From the NCBI GenBank assembly GCA_016186825.1, contig JACPKW010000001.1:13508-77507 (forward strand): a stretch of 64,000 nt of DNA, read 5' to 3'. The notes under the pieces are model-generated. The model worked only from the letters and a program-made list of their open reading frames with translations, did no database searches and had not been told where the DNA came from. This document shows positions 5,997 to 63,501 of this stretch, piece after piece. Numbering within the stretch: position 1 is the first letter of the stretch; each line of letters opens with the position of its first letter. Made by a program: the position numbers and the translations under genes. The stretch comes from Candidatus Giovannonibacteria bacterium (GTDB lineage Bacteria > Patescibacteriota > Minisyncoccia > JACPKW01 > UBA11713).

Positions 5997-6236
5997 ATGT
6001 TGCTATTCATCATGTCTTCAATATTGGTGGTTCTTGGAATGGCAGTCGCGCTTTTGTCCCTAATCTGCTGGCAAATTAGCGTTGGCTCTTTTTTAGAACT
6101 CAACTCATTTGACGGCGCAAACAAGGATTCAACGACAAAACAATGGATCGATGAAGCGGGACTGCCTTCAGTAAGGTGGTTTAAAATCTCACTTTTAATT
6201 TTCTTTCTGGGGCTTGTCGGAGTTTTTTACTTCTGA
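5997..6236 (+). CDS. small membrane protein
   Basis: 79 aa with two TM segments. ATG at 5997 is preceded by the strong SD AAAGGAGG at 5984-5991. The longer ORF-track version (starting 5787) overlaps the tRNA and is rejected. Confidence 0.5.
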   Translation: MLLFIMSSILVVLGMAVALLSLICWQISVGSFLELNSFDGANKDSTTKQWIDEAGLPSVRWFKISLLIFFLGLVGVFYF

Positions 6237-31150: not shown

Positions 31151-31450
31151 CCTCTCTTTTGTCCCGTTCTGCTCGGTACCGCCGAGCCGGAGCCGCCATT
31201 TTAGATTAGCGGCCAAAATCTATTCAACTAATCAACTACTAACTAGTCAACTAATTGACCGGCCTATTAAGGAGTGGCGTTTAAATTTTACCGAAGCAAA
31301 ACTAAACGAAATTTATCCTTAAAAGGAGAAAATCCACGACCAGCTTCCGCTAGCCGTGCCTTGTTACGACTTCGTCCTTGTCACCGAGCTTACCTTCGTC
31401 CGTTAAAAAACGACCTTCGGGTACTCCCGGCTTCCCTGACGTGACGGGCG

Positions 31451-32289
31451 ATTATCTTCTAGAAACTTAGAATTGATGTTCCCACGTAGTGTGCGGATTT
31501 CCCGCGCTACGCGAGCTCTAATGCATTGATGCTTTTATTTTATAGAGCTTAGCTAACCCCTGCTTGTTAAGATGTTGGCCGTTTTTTATCCTCAACATCA
31601 GATCACAGAATATCTCAAAGTCTCTTTTCTTTGATTTAAGCTGCAACTGATGAGTTTTAAAAAACGGAATAATGACATCTTCAAGATCCTTTCTATTGGA
31701 TACTTCATAGCGATAACAATTCTGGTGATTCTTACGTGTATCTTTCTGAAAATACACCTCGCCGCAACCGAAAAATTTTTTTAGCCTAAAGAGAATTTCA
31801 GAGTCTCTCTCAATAAGCTTTAAATAAAATTTCGGTTCAGCTCTAACCCATCTTTTTACATTTTTTGTAAATTCAGGGTTTTTAATGTAGGCGGTAAAAC
31901 TACCCTCGCCATCAACTAGTCCAATAATATATTCGGCATTAAGCATATTTAGAGTGGATCCTTTCCGGTTCTAGCCGGTACTATGATCCAGCTGACTTCT
32001 GACGCTGCGTAAGTTTCATTATATCTTATCTTGCGACAAAATAGCAGCGTCAGATCTCCACAGGTCATTTTATTTTCTATTCCAAGCATCCGAATTGGCC
32101 TTATTATGATCTTCCCTGCCCTCACCGCCAATTGCAGGTCGAACTGCCATTTATATATCGGCTGCTTTTTGCTTCCAGATCCTTCGCTTGCCGCTTCACA
32201 GCGGCAAACTATCTTTCGGCTATGCTCTTTGACGAGAAGAGAAATGGATTTTAACCATTCAGAAAATAAAACTGCTGCGCGCTTTTATT
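31451..32289 (-). mobile_element. intron-like insertion 1 in the 16S gene (near E. coli position 1391) carrying a LAGLIDADG ORF
   Basis: The 16S sequence stops after ...CTTGTACTCAC and resumes CGCCCGTCACG 839 bp later. Conserved rRNA flanks are intact on both sides. Confidence 0.65.
31518..31946 (-). CDS. LAGLIDADG homing endonuclease (single-motif)
   Basis: 142 aa. The N-terminal IIGLVDGEGSF is the LAGLIDADG motif. Encoded inside the 16S insertion on the same strand as the rRNA. Confidence 0.75.
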   Translation of the reverse strand: MLNAEYIIGLVDGEGSFTAYIKNPEFTKNVKRWVRAEPKFYLKLIERDSEILFRLKKFFGCGEVYFQKDTRKNHQNCYRYEVSNRKDLEDVIIPFFKTHQLQLKSKKRDFEIFCDLMLRIKNGQHLNKQGLAKLYKIKASMH

Positions 32290-32714
32290 GTGAGTACAAG
32301 ACTCGAGAACGTATTCACCGCGGCATAGCTGATCCGCGATTACTAGCGATTCCAGCTTCATGAGGTCGAGTTTCAGACCTCAATCCGAACTGAGCTCACC
32401 TTTGATGAGATTGGCTCCGCCTTACGGCATCGCGACCCATTGTAGTGAGCATTGTAGCATGTGTGTAGCCCAGGGCATCAGAGGGTCATGCTGACCTGGC
32501 GTCATCCCCGCCTTCCTCCCCCTATACGGAGGCAGTCTCGTCTGACACTTATAACAGACGATAAGGGTTGCGTTCGTTACCCCACTTAAGGGAACAGCTC
32601 AAGCCACGAACTGACGACGGCCATGCAACACCTGTGTAAGCGTCCTTGTGAGACATTTTTTCTTTCGAAAAAATTTCGCTTACATTTCAAGCCCTGGTGA
32701 GGTTCTTCGTTTAC

Positions 32715-32749
<35 letters not shown>

Positions 32750-32896
32750 AGTCCCCGTCTATTCCTTTGAGTTTTAATCTTGCGATCGTACTTCCCAGGC
32801 GGCAGGCTTAACGCGTTAGCTTACGGCTCCCGAAGGGTCGATACTTCGGATGCCTAGCCTGCATCGTTTAGGGCGTGGACTACAAGGGTATCTACA

Positions 32897-33593
32897 AATT
32901 TGTTGCTAACAACAAATTTGAAATTTTCAATTTTACAATTTCCAATTTTCAAAATGTTGTAGGGCAAGACATTTCTGCTTGTCTCTCTGCATCGCTGCAG
33001 AGTTCAGACTATATCATACGAGCACTTTGAGAAGCGGACGTCGTTAGACATCCGGACTTCAAAGTGCTCGCCTCGGCGTATAGTCGTTGAGGGGAATTAG
33101 ACTGGGATAAAACGACTCACCTCATAAAGGTTTCTGCCAATAACTCGATCTCCGCCAGCTTCGATGTTCTTGATAAATTCAGCCAAATCCGCTTTCGCAA
33201 GATCGTCGGACTCCTGTTCGATGCATTCAACTATGCTGCGGTTCTTGTTTTCTATATCAAGTATAGCGAGATAGTTCATTTTCTACTCCTTTCTTAATTC
33301 TTCCCTGCTGGTTATCCGCACCAAAACATTTTTACTCTTGCAAGTAGTTTTGGATACACCGGACTTTCCAGCATATAGCTCCCGCCTCGGCTCACGCCTC
33401 GACGGGATTCTCAATTTTGCAGCCAACATGCGTTGGGCAAAATTGGAACAAGTTTTTTATCCTCGTCCGCCAGTTAGCGGATTCGAGGGGACTAGTTTTC
33501 CGCCGATACCCTCGGCGGCCACTGCACAGCAGTAAAATCTCCAATTTGAAAATTGAAAATTGTAAATTGAAAATTTCGCTGCCATGCAGCGGG
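32897..33593 (-). mobile_element. intron-like insertion 2 in the 16S gene (within the GGATTA|GATACCC block, near E. coli position 788)
   Basis: About 697 bp interrupt a universally conserved block. The insertion termini carry complementary AT-rich repeats (AAATTTGAAATTTTCAATTTTACAATTTCC at 32921-32950 and GAAAATTGAAAATTGTAAATTGAAAATTTC at 33549-33578) that could pair the intron ends. Confidence 0.55.
33097..33279 (-). CDS. small acidic ORF inside 16S insertion 2, preceded by a strong SD
   Basis: 60 aa. The minus-strand upstream sequence reads GAATTAAGAAAGGAGTAGAAA-ATG, so the SD AAAGGAG lies 6 nt from the start. No recognised motif. Confidence 0.35.
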   Translation of the reverse strand: MNYLAILDIENKNRSIVECIEQESDDLAKADLAEFIKNIEAGGDRVIGRNLYEVSRFIPV

Positions 33594-33920
33594 TTAATCC
33601 TTTTTGATCCCCACGCTTTCGTGTTTCAGGGTCAGGAATGCCCCAGCAAATTGCCTTCGCCTTTGGTGTTCCCCTAGATATCAACGGATTTCACCCCTAC
33701 ACCTAGAGTTCCATTTGCCTCTGGCACCCTCCGAGCTCGGCCGTTTCCCCGCCAGCTTCAGGGTTGAGCCCTGAAATTTAAACGGAGACTAACCGTGCCC
33801 CCTACACACCCTTTACGCCCAATAAATCCGGATAACGCTCGGGCTCCTCGTCTTACCGCGGCTGCTGGCACGAGGTTAGCAAGCCCTTATTCCTGCGGTA
33901 CCGTCAGAGTTAGAGCTGTG

Positions 33921-34148
33921 AAGAGACAAGTTTTTTTCCTTTCTACTTGCCTCGTATTTTCCTTATTGGATAAGGACTATTGAAAATATATTTGGGGTTG
34001 TCATTTTTGATTCTTATGAATCTCCCAGGGACTTCATCTGATGTTGCTTCAAATTCTTTTGTAACTCTTTCCCCGGTTTTTTGATTTACCCCGCGCACTA
34101 TATACAAATAGCGCTGATATTCTCTATTTAACATTTTAAATATCTCCT
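33921..34148 (-). other. insertion of about 228 nt in the loop of the 16S V3 hairpin (helix 17), intervening-sequence-like
   Basis: Complementary stems GAGTTAGAGCTGTG (33907-33920) and CACAGCTCCAACTC (34149-34162) flank about 228 nt where E. coli has about 35 nt. Confidence 0.5.
33943..34134 (-). CDS. small basic ORF (63 aa) inside the 16S V3 insertion, preceded by an SD
   Basis: MLNREYQRYLYIVRGVNQKTGERVTKEFEATSDEVPGRFIRIKNDNPKYIFNSPYPIRKIRGK. The upstream minus-strand sequence is GTGAGGAGATATTT-ATG (GGAG 7 nt from the start). The longer ORF-track version (to 34299) runs into conserved rRNA and is rejected. Confidence 0.35.
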   Translation of the reverse strand: MLNREYQRYLYIVRGVNQKTGERVTKEFEATSDEVPGRFIRIKNDNPKYIFNSPYPIRKIRGK

Positions 34149-34626
34149 CACAGCTCCAACTCTTCTTCTCGCAGAAAAGCGGTTTACGCTCCGAAGAGCT
34201 TCTTCCCGCACGCGGCGTCGCTCGATCAGGCTTTCGCCCATTGTCGAATGTTCTTGACTGCAGCCACCCGTAGGTGTATGGACCGTGTCGCAGTTCCATT
34301 GGTGGGGATCAAGCTCTCACTTCCCCTAGCCGTCATAGCCTTGGTAGGCCATTACCCTACCAACAAGCTGATAGCCCGCAGGCCTTTCCCAGAGCCTATC
34401 GCTAGATTTACTCGGCACCTTCCAAACTTCGTGTAATTCGCTCGACACAAAGTCTCGAAGGTGCCGAGACTATCGGGAATTAGCTAACCTTTCGGCTAGT
34501 TATGCCCGTCTCTGGGGTAAGTTCCTACGTGTTACTACCCCGTCTGCCACTGAACATCTAAATCCGTCGCATTGATATAATCTCAACTCCTTCAAAAGAT
34601 GTTCCGTTCGACTTGCATGCCTTATC

Positions 34627-34666
<40 letters not shown>

Positions 34667-35068
34667 TTTGAATTGCTCACGCATTGCGCGAGCAAATTTT
34701 GAACGGGACAAAAGAGAGTAGTTATAACTTTCTTTTGTCACAAACTTTTCACCCGCTTAAGTATTGTCTTAAACAATTCCTTGCGGGTTGTGTGTCCCGA
34801 TTTTGCTTCTGCAAAGCAGAAATGCAAAATCGAGGATCCCCGATTTTCATTTATGAAAATCGGGACATGTTTTTGATATTCTTTTTTCAACGTTCTGTCG
34901 ATCTGAATATTCTCTGTAAACAAACCCGCAACTGCCTTCACATAAAAACAGTTGCGGACTTGTTTATTTTTCAAATAAATTTTTAGGGCTGTTTACATAA
35001 GTTTTCGAATTAATTCTAAGTCCAATGTCCATTATATGGTTCCTGCAAAGCTTGTCAACCGGCCGATT

Positions 35069-60107: not shown

Positions 60108-60136
60108 TTGACTTTCCAGCCAGTCTAATATATAAT
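60108..60136 (+). promoter_or_regulatory. sigma-70 consensus promoter (TTGACT, 17 bp, TATAAT)
   Basis: TTGACT at 60108-60113, a 17-nt spacer, TATAAT at 60131-60136. About 60 nt upstream of the SD and ATG of the 60199 gene. Confidence 0.6.
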
Positions 60137-60198: not shown

Positions 60199-60810
60199 AT
60201 GCGAAAATTTCTGTTCTTAAACATTGTGGCAATATTGGTGGTTTTCGCGGCTTCTGCCGTGAGAGCTGAAAAAGAGGTTTTTGTCTCAAAAAACTTGTCA
60301 GTTAACGACAGCCGCCTCGGGCAGATTGGCTGTCTTTCAGCTTCTAGCTATCTGTTTGCGGCAGACAGCTGGGGGCGCCACAACAAGGATAAACAAACTT
60401 ATTCTGGAGGGTATCTGAGCACGTTTGTTCATGACAGGTGCTCAGGATATGTCATCCTCGACTCAGGAGTAAGTCTGTGGTTCGATGATCAAGCCTTGAT
60501 AGTGGACAAAAGGCTCAAAAAGGCAACCTTGGTTTATGAGGGCTGGATTTATGATTACTACCAGGGTTGGGTTTACATCGACGTCGACATGGCCTGGTAT
60601 CAAACTGCCGACGAGGTAACAAAGGGCAATTCATTTTGGGTGACCAGAAAGCCCTCGGAAATAGTCAAATCCCGTTTCAAGGGGGAAGCCCGGAGCGCCA
60701 ACTCGATTGGTGTCATCATTGTGAACGGAATTGACTTTGCGGCTGGGGACCCTGACGAGGACGCTTATATCTCGAAAGGAAATAACGTTCTCACGATCAT
60801 CCGACGCTGA
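60199..60810 (+). CDS. secreted hypothetical protein
   Basis: 203 aa. Strong SD AAAAGGAGGAAAGG. Signal peptide MRKFLFLNIVAILVVFAASAVRA. Confidence 0.55.
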   Translation: MRKFLFLNIVAILVVFAASAVRAEKEVFVSKNLSVNDSRLGQIGCLSASSYLFAADSWGRHNKDKQTYSGGYLSTFVHDRCSGYVILDSGVSLWFDDQALIVDKRLKKATLVYEGWIYDYYQGWVYIDVDMAWYQTADEVTKGNSFWVTRKPSEIVKSRFKGEARSANSIGVIIVNGIDFAAGDPDEDAYISKGNNVLTIIRR

Positions 60811-60870
60811 CGCCACAGAACCGGACAGGAGGCGGAGTGCGAAAGCATTCCCCTCCTTCCACAATTTAAA

Positions 60871-60892
60871 CTCCGCAAAGCGGAGATTTTTT
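60871..60892 (+). terminator. intrinsic terminator CTCCGC-aaa-GCGGAG plus T-run
   Basis: Read directly. 60 nt after the stop of the 60199-60810 gene. Confidence 0.65.
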
Positions 60893-60915
60893 ATATTTGA
60901 GACAAAATCGGATAT

Positions 60916-60944
60916 TTGACAAACGCGCCTTGTCGTAGTATAAT
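60916..60944 (+). promoter_or_regulatory. perfect sigma-70 consensus promoter (TTGACA, 17 bp, TATAAT)
   Basis: TTGACA at 60916-60921, a 17-nt spacer, TATAAT at 60939-60944. Followed by GGAGG and ATG. Confidence 0.65.
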
Positions 60945-60968
60945 GAACAAAACTGCACTGGAGGCTAA

Positions 60969-61130
60969 ATGAAAATTTCAACAGCCCTAATGCTCCTGAT
61001 CGGAGTCCTGGGCTTTCTGTACCTATTCCTCTGGCGGCCACTGCTCCCCGTGCTGGAGCGTAAGGCCGCCGATTACCGGACACCGTCCCGCTCGGAGCTC
61101 GCAGAGCTCGAGCGGCTTGAAAAACGTTGA
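60969..61130 (+). CDS. small hydrophobic peptide (53 aa; below the ORF-track cutoff), GC-rich
   Basis: MKISTALMLLIGVLGFLYLFLWRPLLPVLERKAADYRTPSRSELAELERLEKR. SD GGAGG 4 nt upstream. One TM, then an amphipathic charged tail. Confidence 0.45.
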   Translation: MKISTALMLLIGVLGFLYLFLWRPLLPVLERKAADYRTPSRSELAELERLEKR

Positions 61131-61307
61131 ACTTTCGATCCGCAGGGGGTGCTCATTTCCTCCTACCCCTGCGGAGTAACCTCCGGGAGCTGACTGAAAA
61201 GTTGCCCGATCAGCCAGCTCTCGGAGCACACAATTTTCCCTGACACGTTCGGGGAATTTTCTTTTGTCGTTAATTACTGTTTGAATCCAAAACACCTCAA
61301 TACCTAA

Positions 61308-61350
61308 AATGGTACCATCTCCCCACGATCGCCCCAAGATGGTACCATTA
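61308..61350. repeat. palindrome AATGGTACCATCT-CCCCACGATCGCCCCA-AGATGGTACCATT immediately upstream of the 61356 gene
   Basis: 13-bp perfect inverted arms around a CGATCG core. It ends 5 nt before the start codon. Confidence 0.85.
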
Positions 61351-61355
61351 TAACA

Positions 61356-61898
61356 ATGAAAGGATACGGGAAAATTTCAGGAAAAATCCTAATGCTCCTT
61401 GCAAACGGAGTCGTTTTGGGATCAACAAAAGACAAAAAGGAGCGCGAAAAAATTTTGAGAGACTCTGATCGAATCTGGATGAGTTTTGACGCAAAAGTCC
61501 TAAATAGAATACTTAGACGTTTTCAAAAAAGTGGGCTGGCGGTTCAGAGAAATGAGAATGGCCGGCATTTATTTGCAGTCACAGAAACCGGCCGCAGAAA
61601 AGCTTTAGCATATTCACTCAATGATTTAAAAATTAAAATCCCTCGGAAATGGGATAAAAGGTGGAGAATGGTACTTTTCGACATCCCTGAACCTAAGAGA
61701 AAAAAGCGCGATGCTTTAAGGGACAAAATAAAACAACTGGGTTTTCTCGAGTTTCAGAAAAGCGTTTTTGTTTTCCCATACCCCTGCGATGATGAAATTA
61801 ATTCCATTATTAATTTTTTTGATATTGCGGAGAATGTCTATTGTATTGAGGCGTCAATCAACCCAGATGCTGAGCTTAGAAAACATTTCAAAATTTGA
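61356..61898 (+). CDS. winged-helix plus Cas2-like/PaaX-C-like domain protein (paralog B)
   Basis: 180 aa. KWDKRWRMVLFDIPEPKRKKRDALRDKIKQLGFLEFQKSVFVFPYPCDDEINSIINFFDIAENVYCIEA. Co-linear with 37391-37936, and both end KHFKI. Confidence 0.55.
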   Translation: MKGYGKISGKILMLLANGVVLGSTKDKKEREKILRDSDRIWMSFDAKVLNRILRRFQKSGLAVQRNENGRHLFAVTETGRRKALAYSLNDLKIKIPRKWDKRWRMVLFDIPEPKRKKRDALRDKIKQLGFLEFQKSVFVFPYPCDDEINSIINFFDIAENVYCIEASINPDAELRKHFKI

Positions 61899-61916: not shown

Positions 61917-61954
61917 AGGTACCATCTTGGGGCGATCGCACCAAGATGGTACCT
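61917..61954. repeat. palindrome AGGTACCATCTTGG-GGCGATCGCA-CCAAGATGGTACCT, 19 nt downstream of the 61356-61898 gene
   Basis: 14-bp inverted arms around CGATCG, with one mismatch in the spacer. Confidence 0.85.
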
Positions 61955-61989: not shown

Positions 61990-63501
61990 TTAATATTCCT
62001 CAAGTAGGCGGGTAAGGAGGCGCACCGGAGCGCCGGAGGCGCCCTTGGCAAGAAAATCTCCCTCCGTAGTCGTCATACGCGATGCGATATCTAGATGAAC
62101 CCACGGATAGGCTTCTTCCCCCTCTTTTGAATCTTTCACGAATTGCCACAAAAAGACTGCCGCCGTAATCGCACCGCCCCAGCGGAATTTTCCGATATTC
62201 GCCCAATCACCAAATGTTCCTTTGATATCATCCTCATAATCTTTTGAAAGCGGGAGCGGCCACACCAAATCTCCGGTTTCATCGCCAAGCCGCCGAAACT
62301 CCGCTTCTAATTTTTTATCTGACGTAAAAAGTCCGGTAAAGCGCGGGCCGACTGCAACTGCGGCGGCTCCGGTCAAAGTCGCAACGTCGACAACAAGGCG
62401 CGGATCATATTTTTTTGCATAGTGCAATGCGTCCGCCAAAATTATTCTTCCCTCGGCATCAGTATTCAACACCTCGATTGAAAGCCCCGACATGCTTCGT
62501 AACACATCACCTGGATGATAGCTCGATCCGGAAGGCATATTTTCAACGGCGGGAATCAGACCCACTATATTTTTCTTTAATTTTAAACGCGCAGCCGCGC
62601 AAATTGCATGAATTACGGCAGCGCCGCCCGACATATCCATATGCATTTCATAAATTGCGGTCTCTGGTTTTAAATTTAGTCCGCCCGTATCAAAAGTAAC
62701 ACCCTTCCCGACCAAGACAATCGGCTTTTGGCTTTTTGGGCCGTTAAAATATTCGAGCACGATAAATCTGGGCCGTTCCGCAGATCCCTTCGATACTCCG
62801 AGAACTCCTCCCATTTTTAATTCACGAATTTGTTTTTCTTCAAAGACTGTTATTTTTATTCCGACGCTTTTGGCATCCTTTCGGGCGTGTTCGGCAAGTA
62901 TTTGCGGCGTCATATCGCCGCCCGGAGTATTTGCAAGATAACGCGTATTATTGACCTCTTCTCCAATAATCGATCCCCGCTCAAAGCCCTTTTGAACATC
63001 CCTATCCACACTAGTATAAATTCCCTGAATTTCTTCCAAAAAGCTGAAGCCGTTTGCGGGCTCACTTTTGTATTTCGAAAATTCAAAATTAGCCATGAAG
63101 GCATTGGCGCTAATAACTTCATAAAAATCGCGAGTTTTCTCTTTGCTCCTCACGGGAGAAGCCCAAAATGCAAATTGTTTGATTCGCTCTTTTTTTGCCG
63201 TAATCACGGCAATACGCGTTGCGAGAGCCGCCTTTGGCGATGAAAACTTTTCACGTCTCGAAAGCCCCACTAAAATAATTTTTCGACCCAAGTCGCTTCC
63301 CTCCGAAGGAAGAATCAAGACCTTAGATTCTTTTTCCTTCAAAACAATATTTTTTGAAATGCCCCTTAGGTATTCCTTTTCGGGCAGATCGAGATATTTA
63401 AAAAGCGGCTGGGATGCAATTTCATCCCCCTCAAACATGAAAAAAACAAGAGGAATATGCCTAGGCTTAGGCTCCTTAAAGGCCCTAAAAACGATATTCA
63501 T
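61990..63501 (-). CDS. pepA: leucyl aminopeptidase (M17 family)
   Basis: 503 aa. The M17 signature NTDAEGRIILADAL, with Lys/Asp metal ligands upstream. Confidence 0.85.
   Translation of the reverse strand: MNIVFRAFKEPKPRHIPLVFFMFEGDEIASQPLFKYLDLPEKEYLRGISKNIVLKEKESKVLILPSEGSDLGRKIILVGLSRREKFSSPKAALATRIAVITAKKERIKQFAFWASPVRSKEKTRDFYEVISANAFMANFEFSKYKSEPANGFSFLEEIQGIYTSVDRDVQKGFERGSIIGEEVNNTRYLANTPGGDMTPQILAEHARKDAKSVGIKITVFEEKQIRELKMGGVLGVSKGSAERPRFIVLEYFNGPKSQKPIVLVGKGVTFDTGGLNLKPETAIYEMHMDMSGGAAVIHAICAAARLKLKKNIVGLIPAVENMPSGSSYHPGDVLRSMSGLSIEVLNTDAEGRIILADALHYAKKYDPRLVVDVATLTGAAAVAVGPRFTGLFTSDKKLEAEFRRLGDETGDLVWPLPLSKDYEDDIKGTFGDWANIGKFRWGGAITAAVFLWQFVKDSKEGEEAYPWVHLDIASRMTTTEGDFLAKGASGAPVRLLTRLLEEY

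Follow-up and report, generated by a model that had tools for sequence, protein, structure and literature searches.

Between the gene of a secreted orphan protein and a PaaX-like regulator gene, the genome of a Candidatus Giovannonibacteria (CPR/Patescibacteria) MAG carries a short segment with a perfect promoter, a 53-codon open reading frame and a series of GC-rich hairpins. The question is what such a segment makes: a small membrane protein, a toxin, a leader peptide acting on the gene downstream, or a structured RNA. The whole stretch of DNA that was analysed, hereafter the window, is 64 kb long and has a GC content of 0.419. The reading that we favour, and consider reasonably probable, is that of an independent monocistronic unit of ~315 nt (~60951 to 61266), encoding a lineage-specific, 53-residue bitopic membrane protein which is probably highly expressed, and ending in stabilising and terminating 3′ hairpins.

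The locus and its annotation

Features of the locus are collected in Table 1; the small ORF is called sORF throughout, and the transcribed segment that carries it the unit. Gene callers differ over positions 60969-61337, one call being the 53-aa frame, another a 46-aa form starting from Met8, and the third a 106-aa ORF on the minus strand, which runs through the GC-rich hairpins and whose coding score is negative. Among NCBI's proteins for the source MAG the 53-aa peptide was not found, and the locus-tag numbering of the flanking genes (00425 and 00435) implies one annotated feature between them. Further minus-strand ORFs (150 aa and 104 aa) and an overlapping 38-aa ORF starting with TTG were rejected, as all their coding scores were negative. 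With three different calls, the locus illustrates how MAG annotation can overlook small genes or call them wrongly.

Table 1. Features of the sORF unit and of its surroundings, in window coordinates unless a locus is named
Feature	Position (strand)	Description
Genes 5′ of the 203-aa orphan		local order gatB(-), efp, DUF2905(-), acylphosphatase(-), uppS
Secreted 203-aa orphan, HYW53_00425	60199-60810	directly 5′ of the sORF unit
Sigma-70-type promoter	60916-60944 (+)	TTGACA 60916-60921, 17-bp spacer, TATAAT 60939-60944, exact
Shine-Dalgarno (SD) GGAGG	60960-60964 (+)	4-nt spacer to ATG 60969
53-codon ORF (sORF) MKISTALMLLIGVLGFLYLFLWRPLLPVLERKAADYRTPSRSELAELERLEKR	60969-61130 (+), stop included	N-terminal TM helix and charged C-terminal tail
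Hairpin inside ORF	61033-61071 (+)	GGCGGCC...GGCCGCC, inner stem 61042-61060, GC-rich
Hairpin inside ORF	61088-61115 (+)	CCGCUCGGAGCUC GCA GAGCUCGAGCGG, -19.2 kcal/mol
3′-UTR hairpin 1	61139-61175 (+)	arms CCGCAGGGG at 61140 and CCCCTGCGG at 61166; -20.5 kcal/mol
3′-UTR hairpin 2	61181-61226 (+)	stem 12 + 4 bp, 1x1 internal loop, 12-nt loop, -25.6 kcal/mol
Intrinsic terminator	61236-61266 (+)	stem-loop 61236-61256 then UUUUCUUUUG, U run to ~61266
PaaX_M/Cas2-like wHTH gene, HYW53_00435	61356-61898	same strand, downstream of the sORF unit
503-aa ORF	61990-63501 (-)	convergent; leucyl-aminopeptidase-like by eye
Genes 5′ of PaaX-like genes in relatives	L115 86-835; L117 2578-2874; L118 688-1101	orphan or envelope genes

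A consensus promoter and a strong translation start

The TTGACA-17-TATAAT promoter claimed in a preliminary description of this DNA is an exact match, and we infer a transcription start at ~60951. Exact TTGACA-N16-18-TATAAT sequences (12/12) occur at two sites when both strands of the 64 kb are counted (128 kb), for 0.03 expected, and the second site lies just 5′ of the 16S rRNA gene (35031-35058, minus strand). A score of 11/12 is reached by six sites in the window, one of which drives the adjacent 203-aa orphan gene. A promoter equal in quality to that of the rRNA counts in favour of a first rival reading, namely a structured non-coding or dual-function RNA with a promoter of stable-RNA grade, where either the ORF would be incidental, or the 3′-UTR hairpins would be released as an sRNA whose CCUCC loop masks RBSs in trans. 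We consider this reading unlikely, and the evidence on both sides of it is given below as it arises.

The GGAGG and the ATG described as opening a 53-aa ORF are present as well, and the frame closes with a stop codon at 61128-61130. This SD pairs with the 3′ tail of the 16S rRNA at -6.6 kcal/mol; of 46 long-ORF starts 91% pair more weakly, as do 94% of random sites. In the centroid fold of the transcript the RBS is left unpaired, and the MFE fold does not sequester it either. An alternative ATG at codon 8, the one used by one of the gene callers, has no SD and would truncate the helix.

In this genome the 16S 3′ tail reads GGAUUUUCUCCUUUU instead of the usual CACCUCCUU. Within 31325-34672 (minus strand), the Rfam 16S match spans 2430 nt, for a model of 1533 nt, and the conserved 16S 3′ motif AAGTCGTAACAAGG is found at 31359-31372 (minus strand), ~900 nt beyond the match; at least two large insertions thus seem to interrupt the gene. 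Mean pairing with the 16S tail was -2.8 kcal/mol at long-ORF starts, crudely taken as the first ATG, and -2.7 kcal/mol at random sites, which suggests that SD usage is weak in the genome. Among the few strong SDs of the window are those of both orphan genes and that of a 79-aa ORF (5997-6236, plus strand), which has two hydrophobic segments, is preceded by AAAGGAGGATAT, and is likely a small membrane protein gene.

The sORF has the statistics of a coding sequence

Coding potential was scored with a codon model that had 31 long ORFs of the window as its training set. In frame 0 the sORF scored +0.116 per codon, the best of the six frames and above 99% of off-frame windows, yet within the lowest 5% of true in-frame windows, and the sORF departs from the genome's usual codon usage. 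In frame, each half of the ORF scores zero or more, while the 3′ UTR is negative in all six frames. GC content by codon position is 0.68/0.40/0.68, and among the first 24 codons a T occupies position 2 in 14 cases, compared to 5 and 2 at the other positions.

The single TM helix proposed earlier is supported: it covers residues ~4-22, with a mean Kyte-Doolittle hydropathy of 2.39 over 19 residues. Such hydrophobicity of a 19-mer was reached, in any frame, by none of 5000 dinucleotide shuffles. The window has 143 ORFs of 40-80 aa that start with ATG; four of these, the sORF included, reach this hydropathy, and at least two of the three others are real membrane-protein genes, DUF2905 and the 79-aa ORF with its strong SD. 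The tail was rightly described as charged, with 8 basic and 6 acidic residues (a ninth basic residue, K2, is N-terminal), but amphipathic it is only moderately, the hydrophobic moment reaching up to 0.7.

Because codon score, GC by position, T pattern, hydrophobicity and SD all point the same way, the sORF looks, by several independent statistics, like a truly coding sequence. A period-3 T pattern and TM-grade hydrophobicity would be unexpected for an RNA gene, as would an SD plus ATG opening the best coding frame, and these observations argue against the structured-RNA reading. The mere presence of 53 open codons is more favourable to it, as such a frame is expected in ~15% of shuffles at this GC and is by itself weak evidence for a gene. 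As for what defines a small membrane protein, an RBS and start codon, a coding signature and a membrane-spanning helix were all found, whereas conservation in relatives was not.

GC content and RNA structure of the unit

GC enrichment of 60960-61300, another earlier claim, was borne out, with 0.54 for this segment compared to 0.419 for the window; the ORF reaches 0.58, and 61131-61230 reaches 0.59. The unit is the second-highest 160-nt GC peak of the window, and ranks first once Gly-repeat coding stretches and rRNA are set aside.

Six stable hairpins fill the transcript. Folding gave a z-score of -5.2 for 60951-61270 and again for the 3′ UTR taken by itself. For the ORF by itself z is -3.6, lower than in any of the 61 control coding windows of 162 nt, which were drawn from 12 of the genome's genes (mean -0.24, sd 1.0, minimum -2.6). 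When 60-nt windows of the 64 kb are ranked by stability, three of the top 15 fall in 60801-61230, two of them within the transcript. These results, together with a GC island within an AT-rich genome, count in favour of a structured RNA.

The arrangement of the 3′ part had to be revised in several respects. The two hairpins are not nested, they stand side by side in tandem, and the first, which had been placed at 61146-61179, lies ~6 nt further left (Table 1). Instead of ~170 nt of hairpins, the structured 3′ part measures ~130 nt and is closed by the terminator. Nor does the structure end at the palindrome which precedes the PaaX-like gene, since ~40 nt of AT-rich DNA separate it from that palindrome, at 61305/61311.

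Rfam 15 was searched for known RNA families. No family matched in the unit at gathering thresholds, including the segment 61131-61300 for which a scan had been called for, and no relevant match appeared at E <= 10 with relaxed filters; the best sub-threshold match, to ctRNA_p42d (21 bits, for a threshold of 50), covers the terminator only. No tmRNA or tRNA was detected at the unit by ARAGORN. An integron attC site, a type III TA repeat array and a retron ncRNA were also rejected, as neither a conserved attC core, nor tandem repeats, nor an RT gene were found. Of the structured small RNA suggested earlier as sharing the transcript, the exceptional structure is confirmed, but it matches no Rfam family and has no homologue on which covariation could be scored.

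Searches for relatives of the peptide and of the RNA

The peptide returned only self-matches in a word-indexed search of 5.8 billion clusters, and exhaustive phmmer against 1.84 billion representatives found the peptide itself and one weak match (P0003, 746 aa, E 1.6e-06). The latter consists of 10 stretches over residues 15-40, and we read it as Leu-rich low complexity. There was no match in Pfam, NCBIfam, PHROGs, PADLOC or PDB. Scans of metagenome and viral contigs with the back-translated peptide recovered no relative, and blastn of the unit DNA against phages and plasmids gave no match; this lack of any related sequence in four kinds of collections weighs against the structured-RNA reading too. 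Stem-pattern scans of sequence collections yielded 85 + 5 matches for hairpin 1, all unrelated hairpins devoid of extended similarity, and none for hairpin 2. Within the window, tblastn and blastn of the unit found only itself, with no paralogue, tandem copy or repeat.

Five independent Logan contigs, from different runs, carry the unit, and they are 100% identical, with no polymorphism. That neither a homologue nor a paralogue of the peptide was found, and that the contigs show no variation, counts against the favoured reading. Among GTDB genomes searched by way of uppS, the nearest one recovered (64% identity in uppS) retains efp, DUF2905, acylphosphatase and uppS, and has unrelated genes after uppS, at the place of the segment under study. 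On sequence grounds, the sORF is probably a lineage-specific small protein gene, neither a known regulatory RNA nor an attenuator.

Toxin and bacteriocin readings

In a second rival reading, the unit would be a type I toxin-antitoxin-like module, with a membrane-damaging 53-aa toxin translated from a structured mRNA, which would be silenced either by an RNA acting in antisense or in trans, or by the anti-SD loop that it carries itself. The features by which Fozo et al. 2010 recognise such toxins, a size below 70 aa, a TM region, a polar or charged C-terminus, and a Trp after the helix followed by charges (PMC2887945), are all present in the peptide, which has one TM region with a Trp right after it, then charged residues. 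The locus is also stand-alone, with its own promoter, and its mRNA is exceptionally structured.

Silencing by the mRNA itself would involve hairpin 1, a perfect G+C-rich stem of 10 bp closed by a 17-nt loop, GUGCUCAUUUCCUCCUA, with an anti-SD-like CCUCC that resembles the 16S anti-SD tail. The loop segment UCAUUUCCUCC is able to pair with the unit's own GGAGG[CU]AAAUGA, covering SD and AUG, at -12.8 kcal/mol, a value equalled by 3.8% of shuffled loops. Four of the 46 other gene starts pair better with this loop, which counts against the type I reading; the strongest pairing, -16 kcal/mol with the RBS of the 203-aa gene next door, is a point for the structured-RNA reading. We regard the loop as a generic anti-SD-like sequence, and its pairing with the SD as a lead, not a finding. 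In both predicted folds, as reported above, the RBS is exposed, another point against the type I reading.

As to silencing by an antisense RNA, an extended -10 sequence, TGTTATAAT, is present on the minus strand at 61355-61347, and the terminator upstream of the unit (60871-60885) is bidirectional. However, this -10 is the mirror arm of the palindrome, its -35 is poor (3/6), and there is no canonical minus-strand terminator near the 3′ UTR; no convincing promoter or terminator for an antisense antitoxin RNA was found on the minus strand at the unit. The peptide has no homology to toxin families in Pfam, NCBIfam or exhaustive phmmer. Tandem duplication of type I loci is a frequent, not an obligatory criterion, and neither a tandem copy nor a paralogue of the unit was seen in the window by blastn and tblastn. 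All in all, we judge the type I reading quite unlikely. What holds of the earlier proposal of a small membrane-active peptide or toxin is the small membrane peptide gene, on the strength of coding statistics, SD and promoter; the toxin part came out with no family homology, no antisense promoter or terminator and no tandem copy.

A bolder proposal would make the locus the first case in the Candidate Phyla Radiation of a module that is type I-toxin-like or dual-function, in which a toxic membrane peptide would be made from a heavily transcribed, hyper-structured mRNA, its translation gated by the anti-SD loop at 61149-61165 or by an antisense RNA issued from the PaaX-operator palindrome. If true, it would link the unit to the palindrome-bracketed regulator next door, but we hold it to be very unlikely. 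The bacteriocin-like option of the preliminary description was abandoned, as the peptide lacks a double-glycine leader and neither transporter nor modification genes lie nearby; a class II bacteriocin precursor was rejected on the missing GG-type leader and on the neighbours, which are a secreted orphan and a PaaX-like regulator.

The adjacent 203-aa orphan

The gene directly upstream of the unit has an 11/12 consensus promoter at 60108-60136 and a near-perfect SD, AAAAAGGAGGAAA. Its product carries a signal peptide and is secreted; the homologue search found none for it, and its single-sequence AlphaFold model is unusable (pLDDT 35). GC3 is 0.56 in this gene and 0.68 in the sORF, compared to 0.41 genome-wide, and the codon score of the gene is low, like that of the sORF. 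It is followed by two 3′ hairpins, one of them with a GAAA loop.

Since the two orphans have in common a raised GC3, low-normal codon scores, near-consensus promoters, strong SDs and double-hairpin 3′ ends, they probably form one lineage-specific island, acquired or fast-evolving, which is absent from the nearest genome mentioned above.

The downstream PaaX-like gene and the attenuator reading

A third reading, listed in the preliminary description, is a leader-peptide transcription attenuator which would control read-through into the PaaX-like gene. Promoter, small ORF, hairpins, terminator and gene do follow each other in this order on the same strand. With its 53 codons, however, the ORF is long and has no run of regulatory codons, and its last base (61130) lies 106 nt away from the beginning of the terminator stem (61236), so that a ribosome would have no direct influence on the terminator. 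Two independent stable hairpins stand in between, and inspection revealed no alternative antiterminator pairing. A promoter-like site (9/12) of the downstream gene's own lies at 61281-61310, followed directly by an operator-like palindrome. Finally, PaaX-like homologues were inspected in ten loci (L015-L022, L115-L118), none of which has an sORF unit upstream: the upstream regions are short or unrelated, and the neighbours are tRNA synthetases, RNase J, T4SS-pilin-like genes and other orphans. Because the unit is missing from these ten loci, the downstream gene has its own sites, and the stop codon is so far from the terminator, the attenuator was rejected, and we consider it extremely improbable.

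The palindrome is 36 nt long, GGTACCATCTTGG-N-CGATCG-N-CCAAGATGGTACC, and occurs at 61311-61346 and again at 61918-61953, flanking the PaaX_M/Cas2-like gene on both sides; a third copy, a perfect one, lies at 2222-2257, ~70 nt 5′ of an MBL-fold hydrolase gene. In five relatives (L017, L019, L021, L115 and L116), the PaaX-like gene is likewise placed between a pair of palindromes, whose arms are species-specific and whose centre is conserved (CGATAG / CGCTATAGCG). The palindromes look like operator sites of the PaaX-like regulator, and the gene they flank is perhaps a looping or invertible cassette. All Logan contigs of the species break within the left palindrome (61344-61347).

Upstream of the PaaX-like gene, relatives often have orphan or envelope genes (Table 1), such as that of a 249-aa membrane orphan or those of T4SS-pilin-like small proteins, and the palindrome-bracketed regulator may sit at a variable, surface-related locus.

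Discussion

How a lineage-specific small membrane protein gene of this kind would work can be outlined as follows. The promoter would drive high, constitutive transcription of the unit, and the exposed RBS would allow translation of the 53-aa peptide. The peptide would then insert with its N-terminus out and its C-terminus in, the charged tail being predicted to face the cytoplasm because R23, R31 and K32, all positively charged, come after the helix. Stability of the short mRNA against 3′-exonucleases would come from the GC-rich hairpins, those in the 3′ half of the ORF as well as those in the 3′ UTR, and hairpins plus terminator would insulate the PaaX-like gene that lies downstream.

Provided that the peptide is made, few genes in these 64 kb of an episymbiotic CPR genome carry stronger signals than the sORF, which, along with the secreted orphan next to it, would be a candidate for a function in the envelope or in host contact. 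The sORF and the secreted 203-aa protein are probably recently acquired or fast-evolving equipment of this episymbiotic bacterium for its envelope or for interaction with its host. As a class, orphan small membrane proteins are nothing out of the ordinary, and the locus, having no relatives, would raise a general question only if toxicity or RNA-based control were demonstrated.

Three groups of known systems bear comparison with the unit. REP-type mRNA stabilisers and the C-rich loops of S. aureus RNAIII and Rsa RNAs are examples of 3′-UTR stabiliser hairpins and of C-rich-loop sRNAs, respectively. The unit resembles them by its tandem stable hairpins between stop codon and terminator, and by the loop of one of these, whose CCUCC is complementary to SDs. 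It differs from REP-type stabilisers and from 3′-UTR-derived sRNAs in that its sequence is not repeated elsewhere in the window.

Type I systems are described so far only in Proteobacteria, Firmicutes and Tenericutes, as far as the account in a 2025 paper goes (PMC12390103). Like the toxins of such systems (Hok, Ldr/Fst and TxpA/BsrG-type; PMC2887945), the sORF product is below 70 aa, with a TM helix, a Trp at the helix end and a charged or polar C-terminus, and its locus is stand-alone and its mRNA strongly folded. Unlike them, it has no homology to the known toxins, no identifiable antitoxin RNA gene, no sequestration of the RBS in the predicted folds, and no duplication.

Small membrane proteins of at most 60 aa with a single TM helix form a class which has been reviewed (PMC12648545) and is sought by the Pro-SMP finder (PMC10903887). 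The sORF differs from the bacterial members of this class in having no sequence family and no conserved partner gene, in its unusually GC-rich and structured mRNA, and in its perfect-consensus promoter, in a genome of otherwise weak SD signals. It is like them in its size, in its single N-terminal TM helix and predicted charged cytoplasmic tail, in having its own promoter, SD and terminator, and in being missed or inconsistently called by standard annotation.
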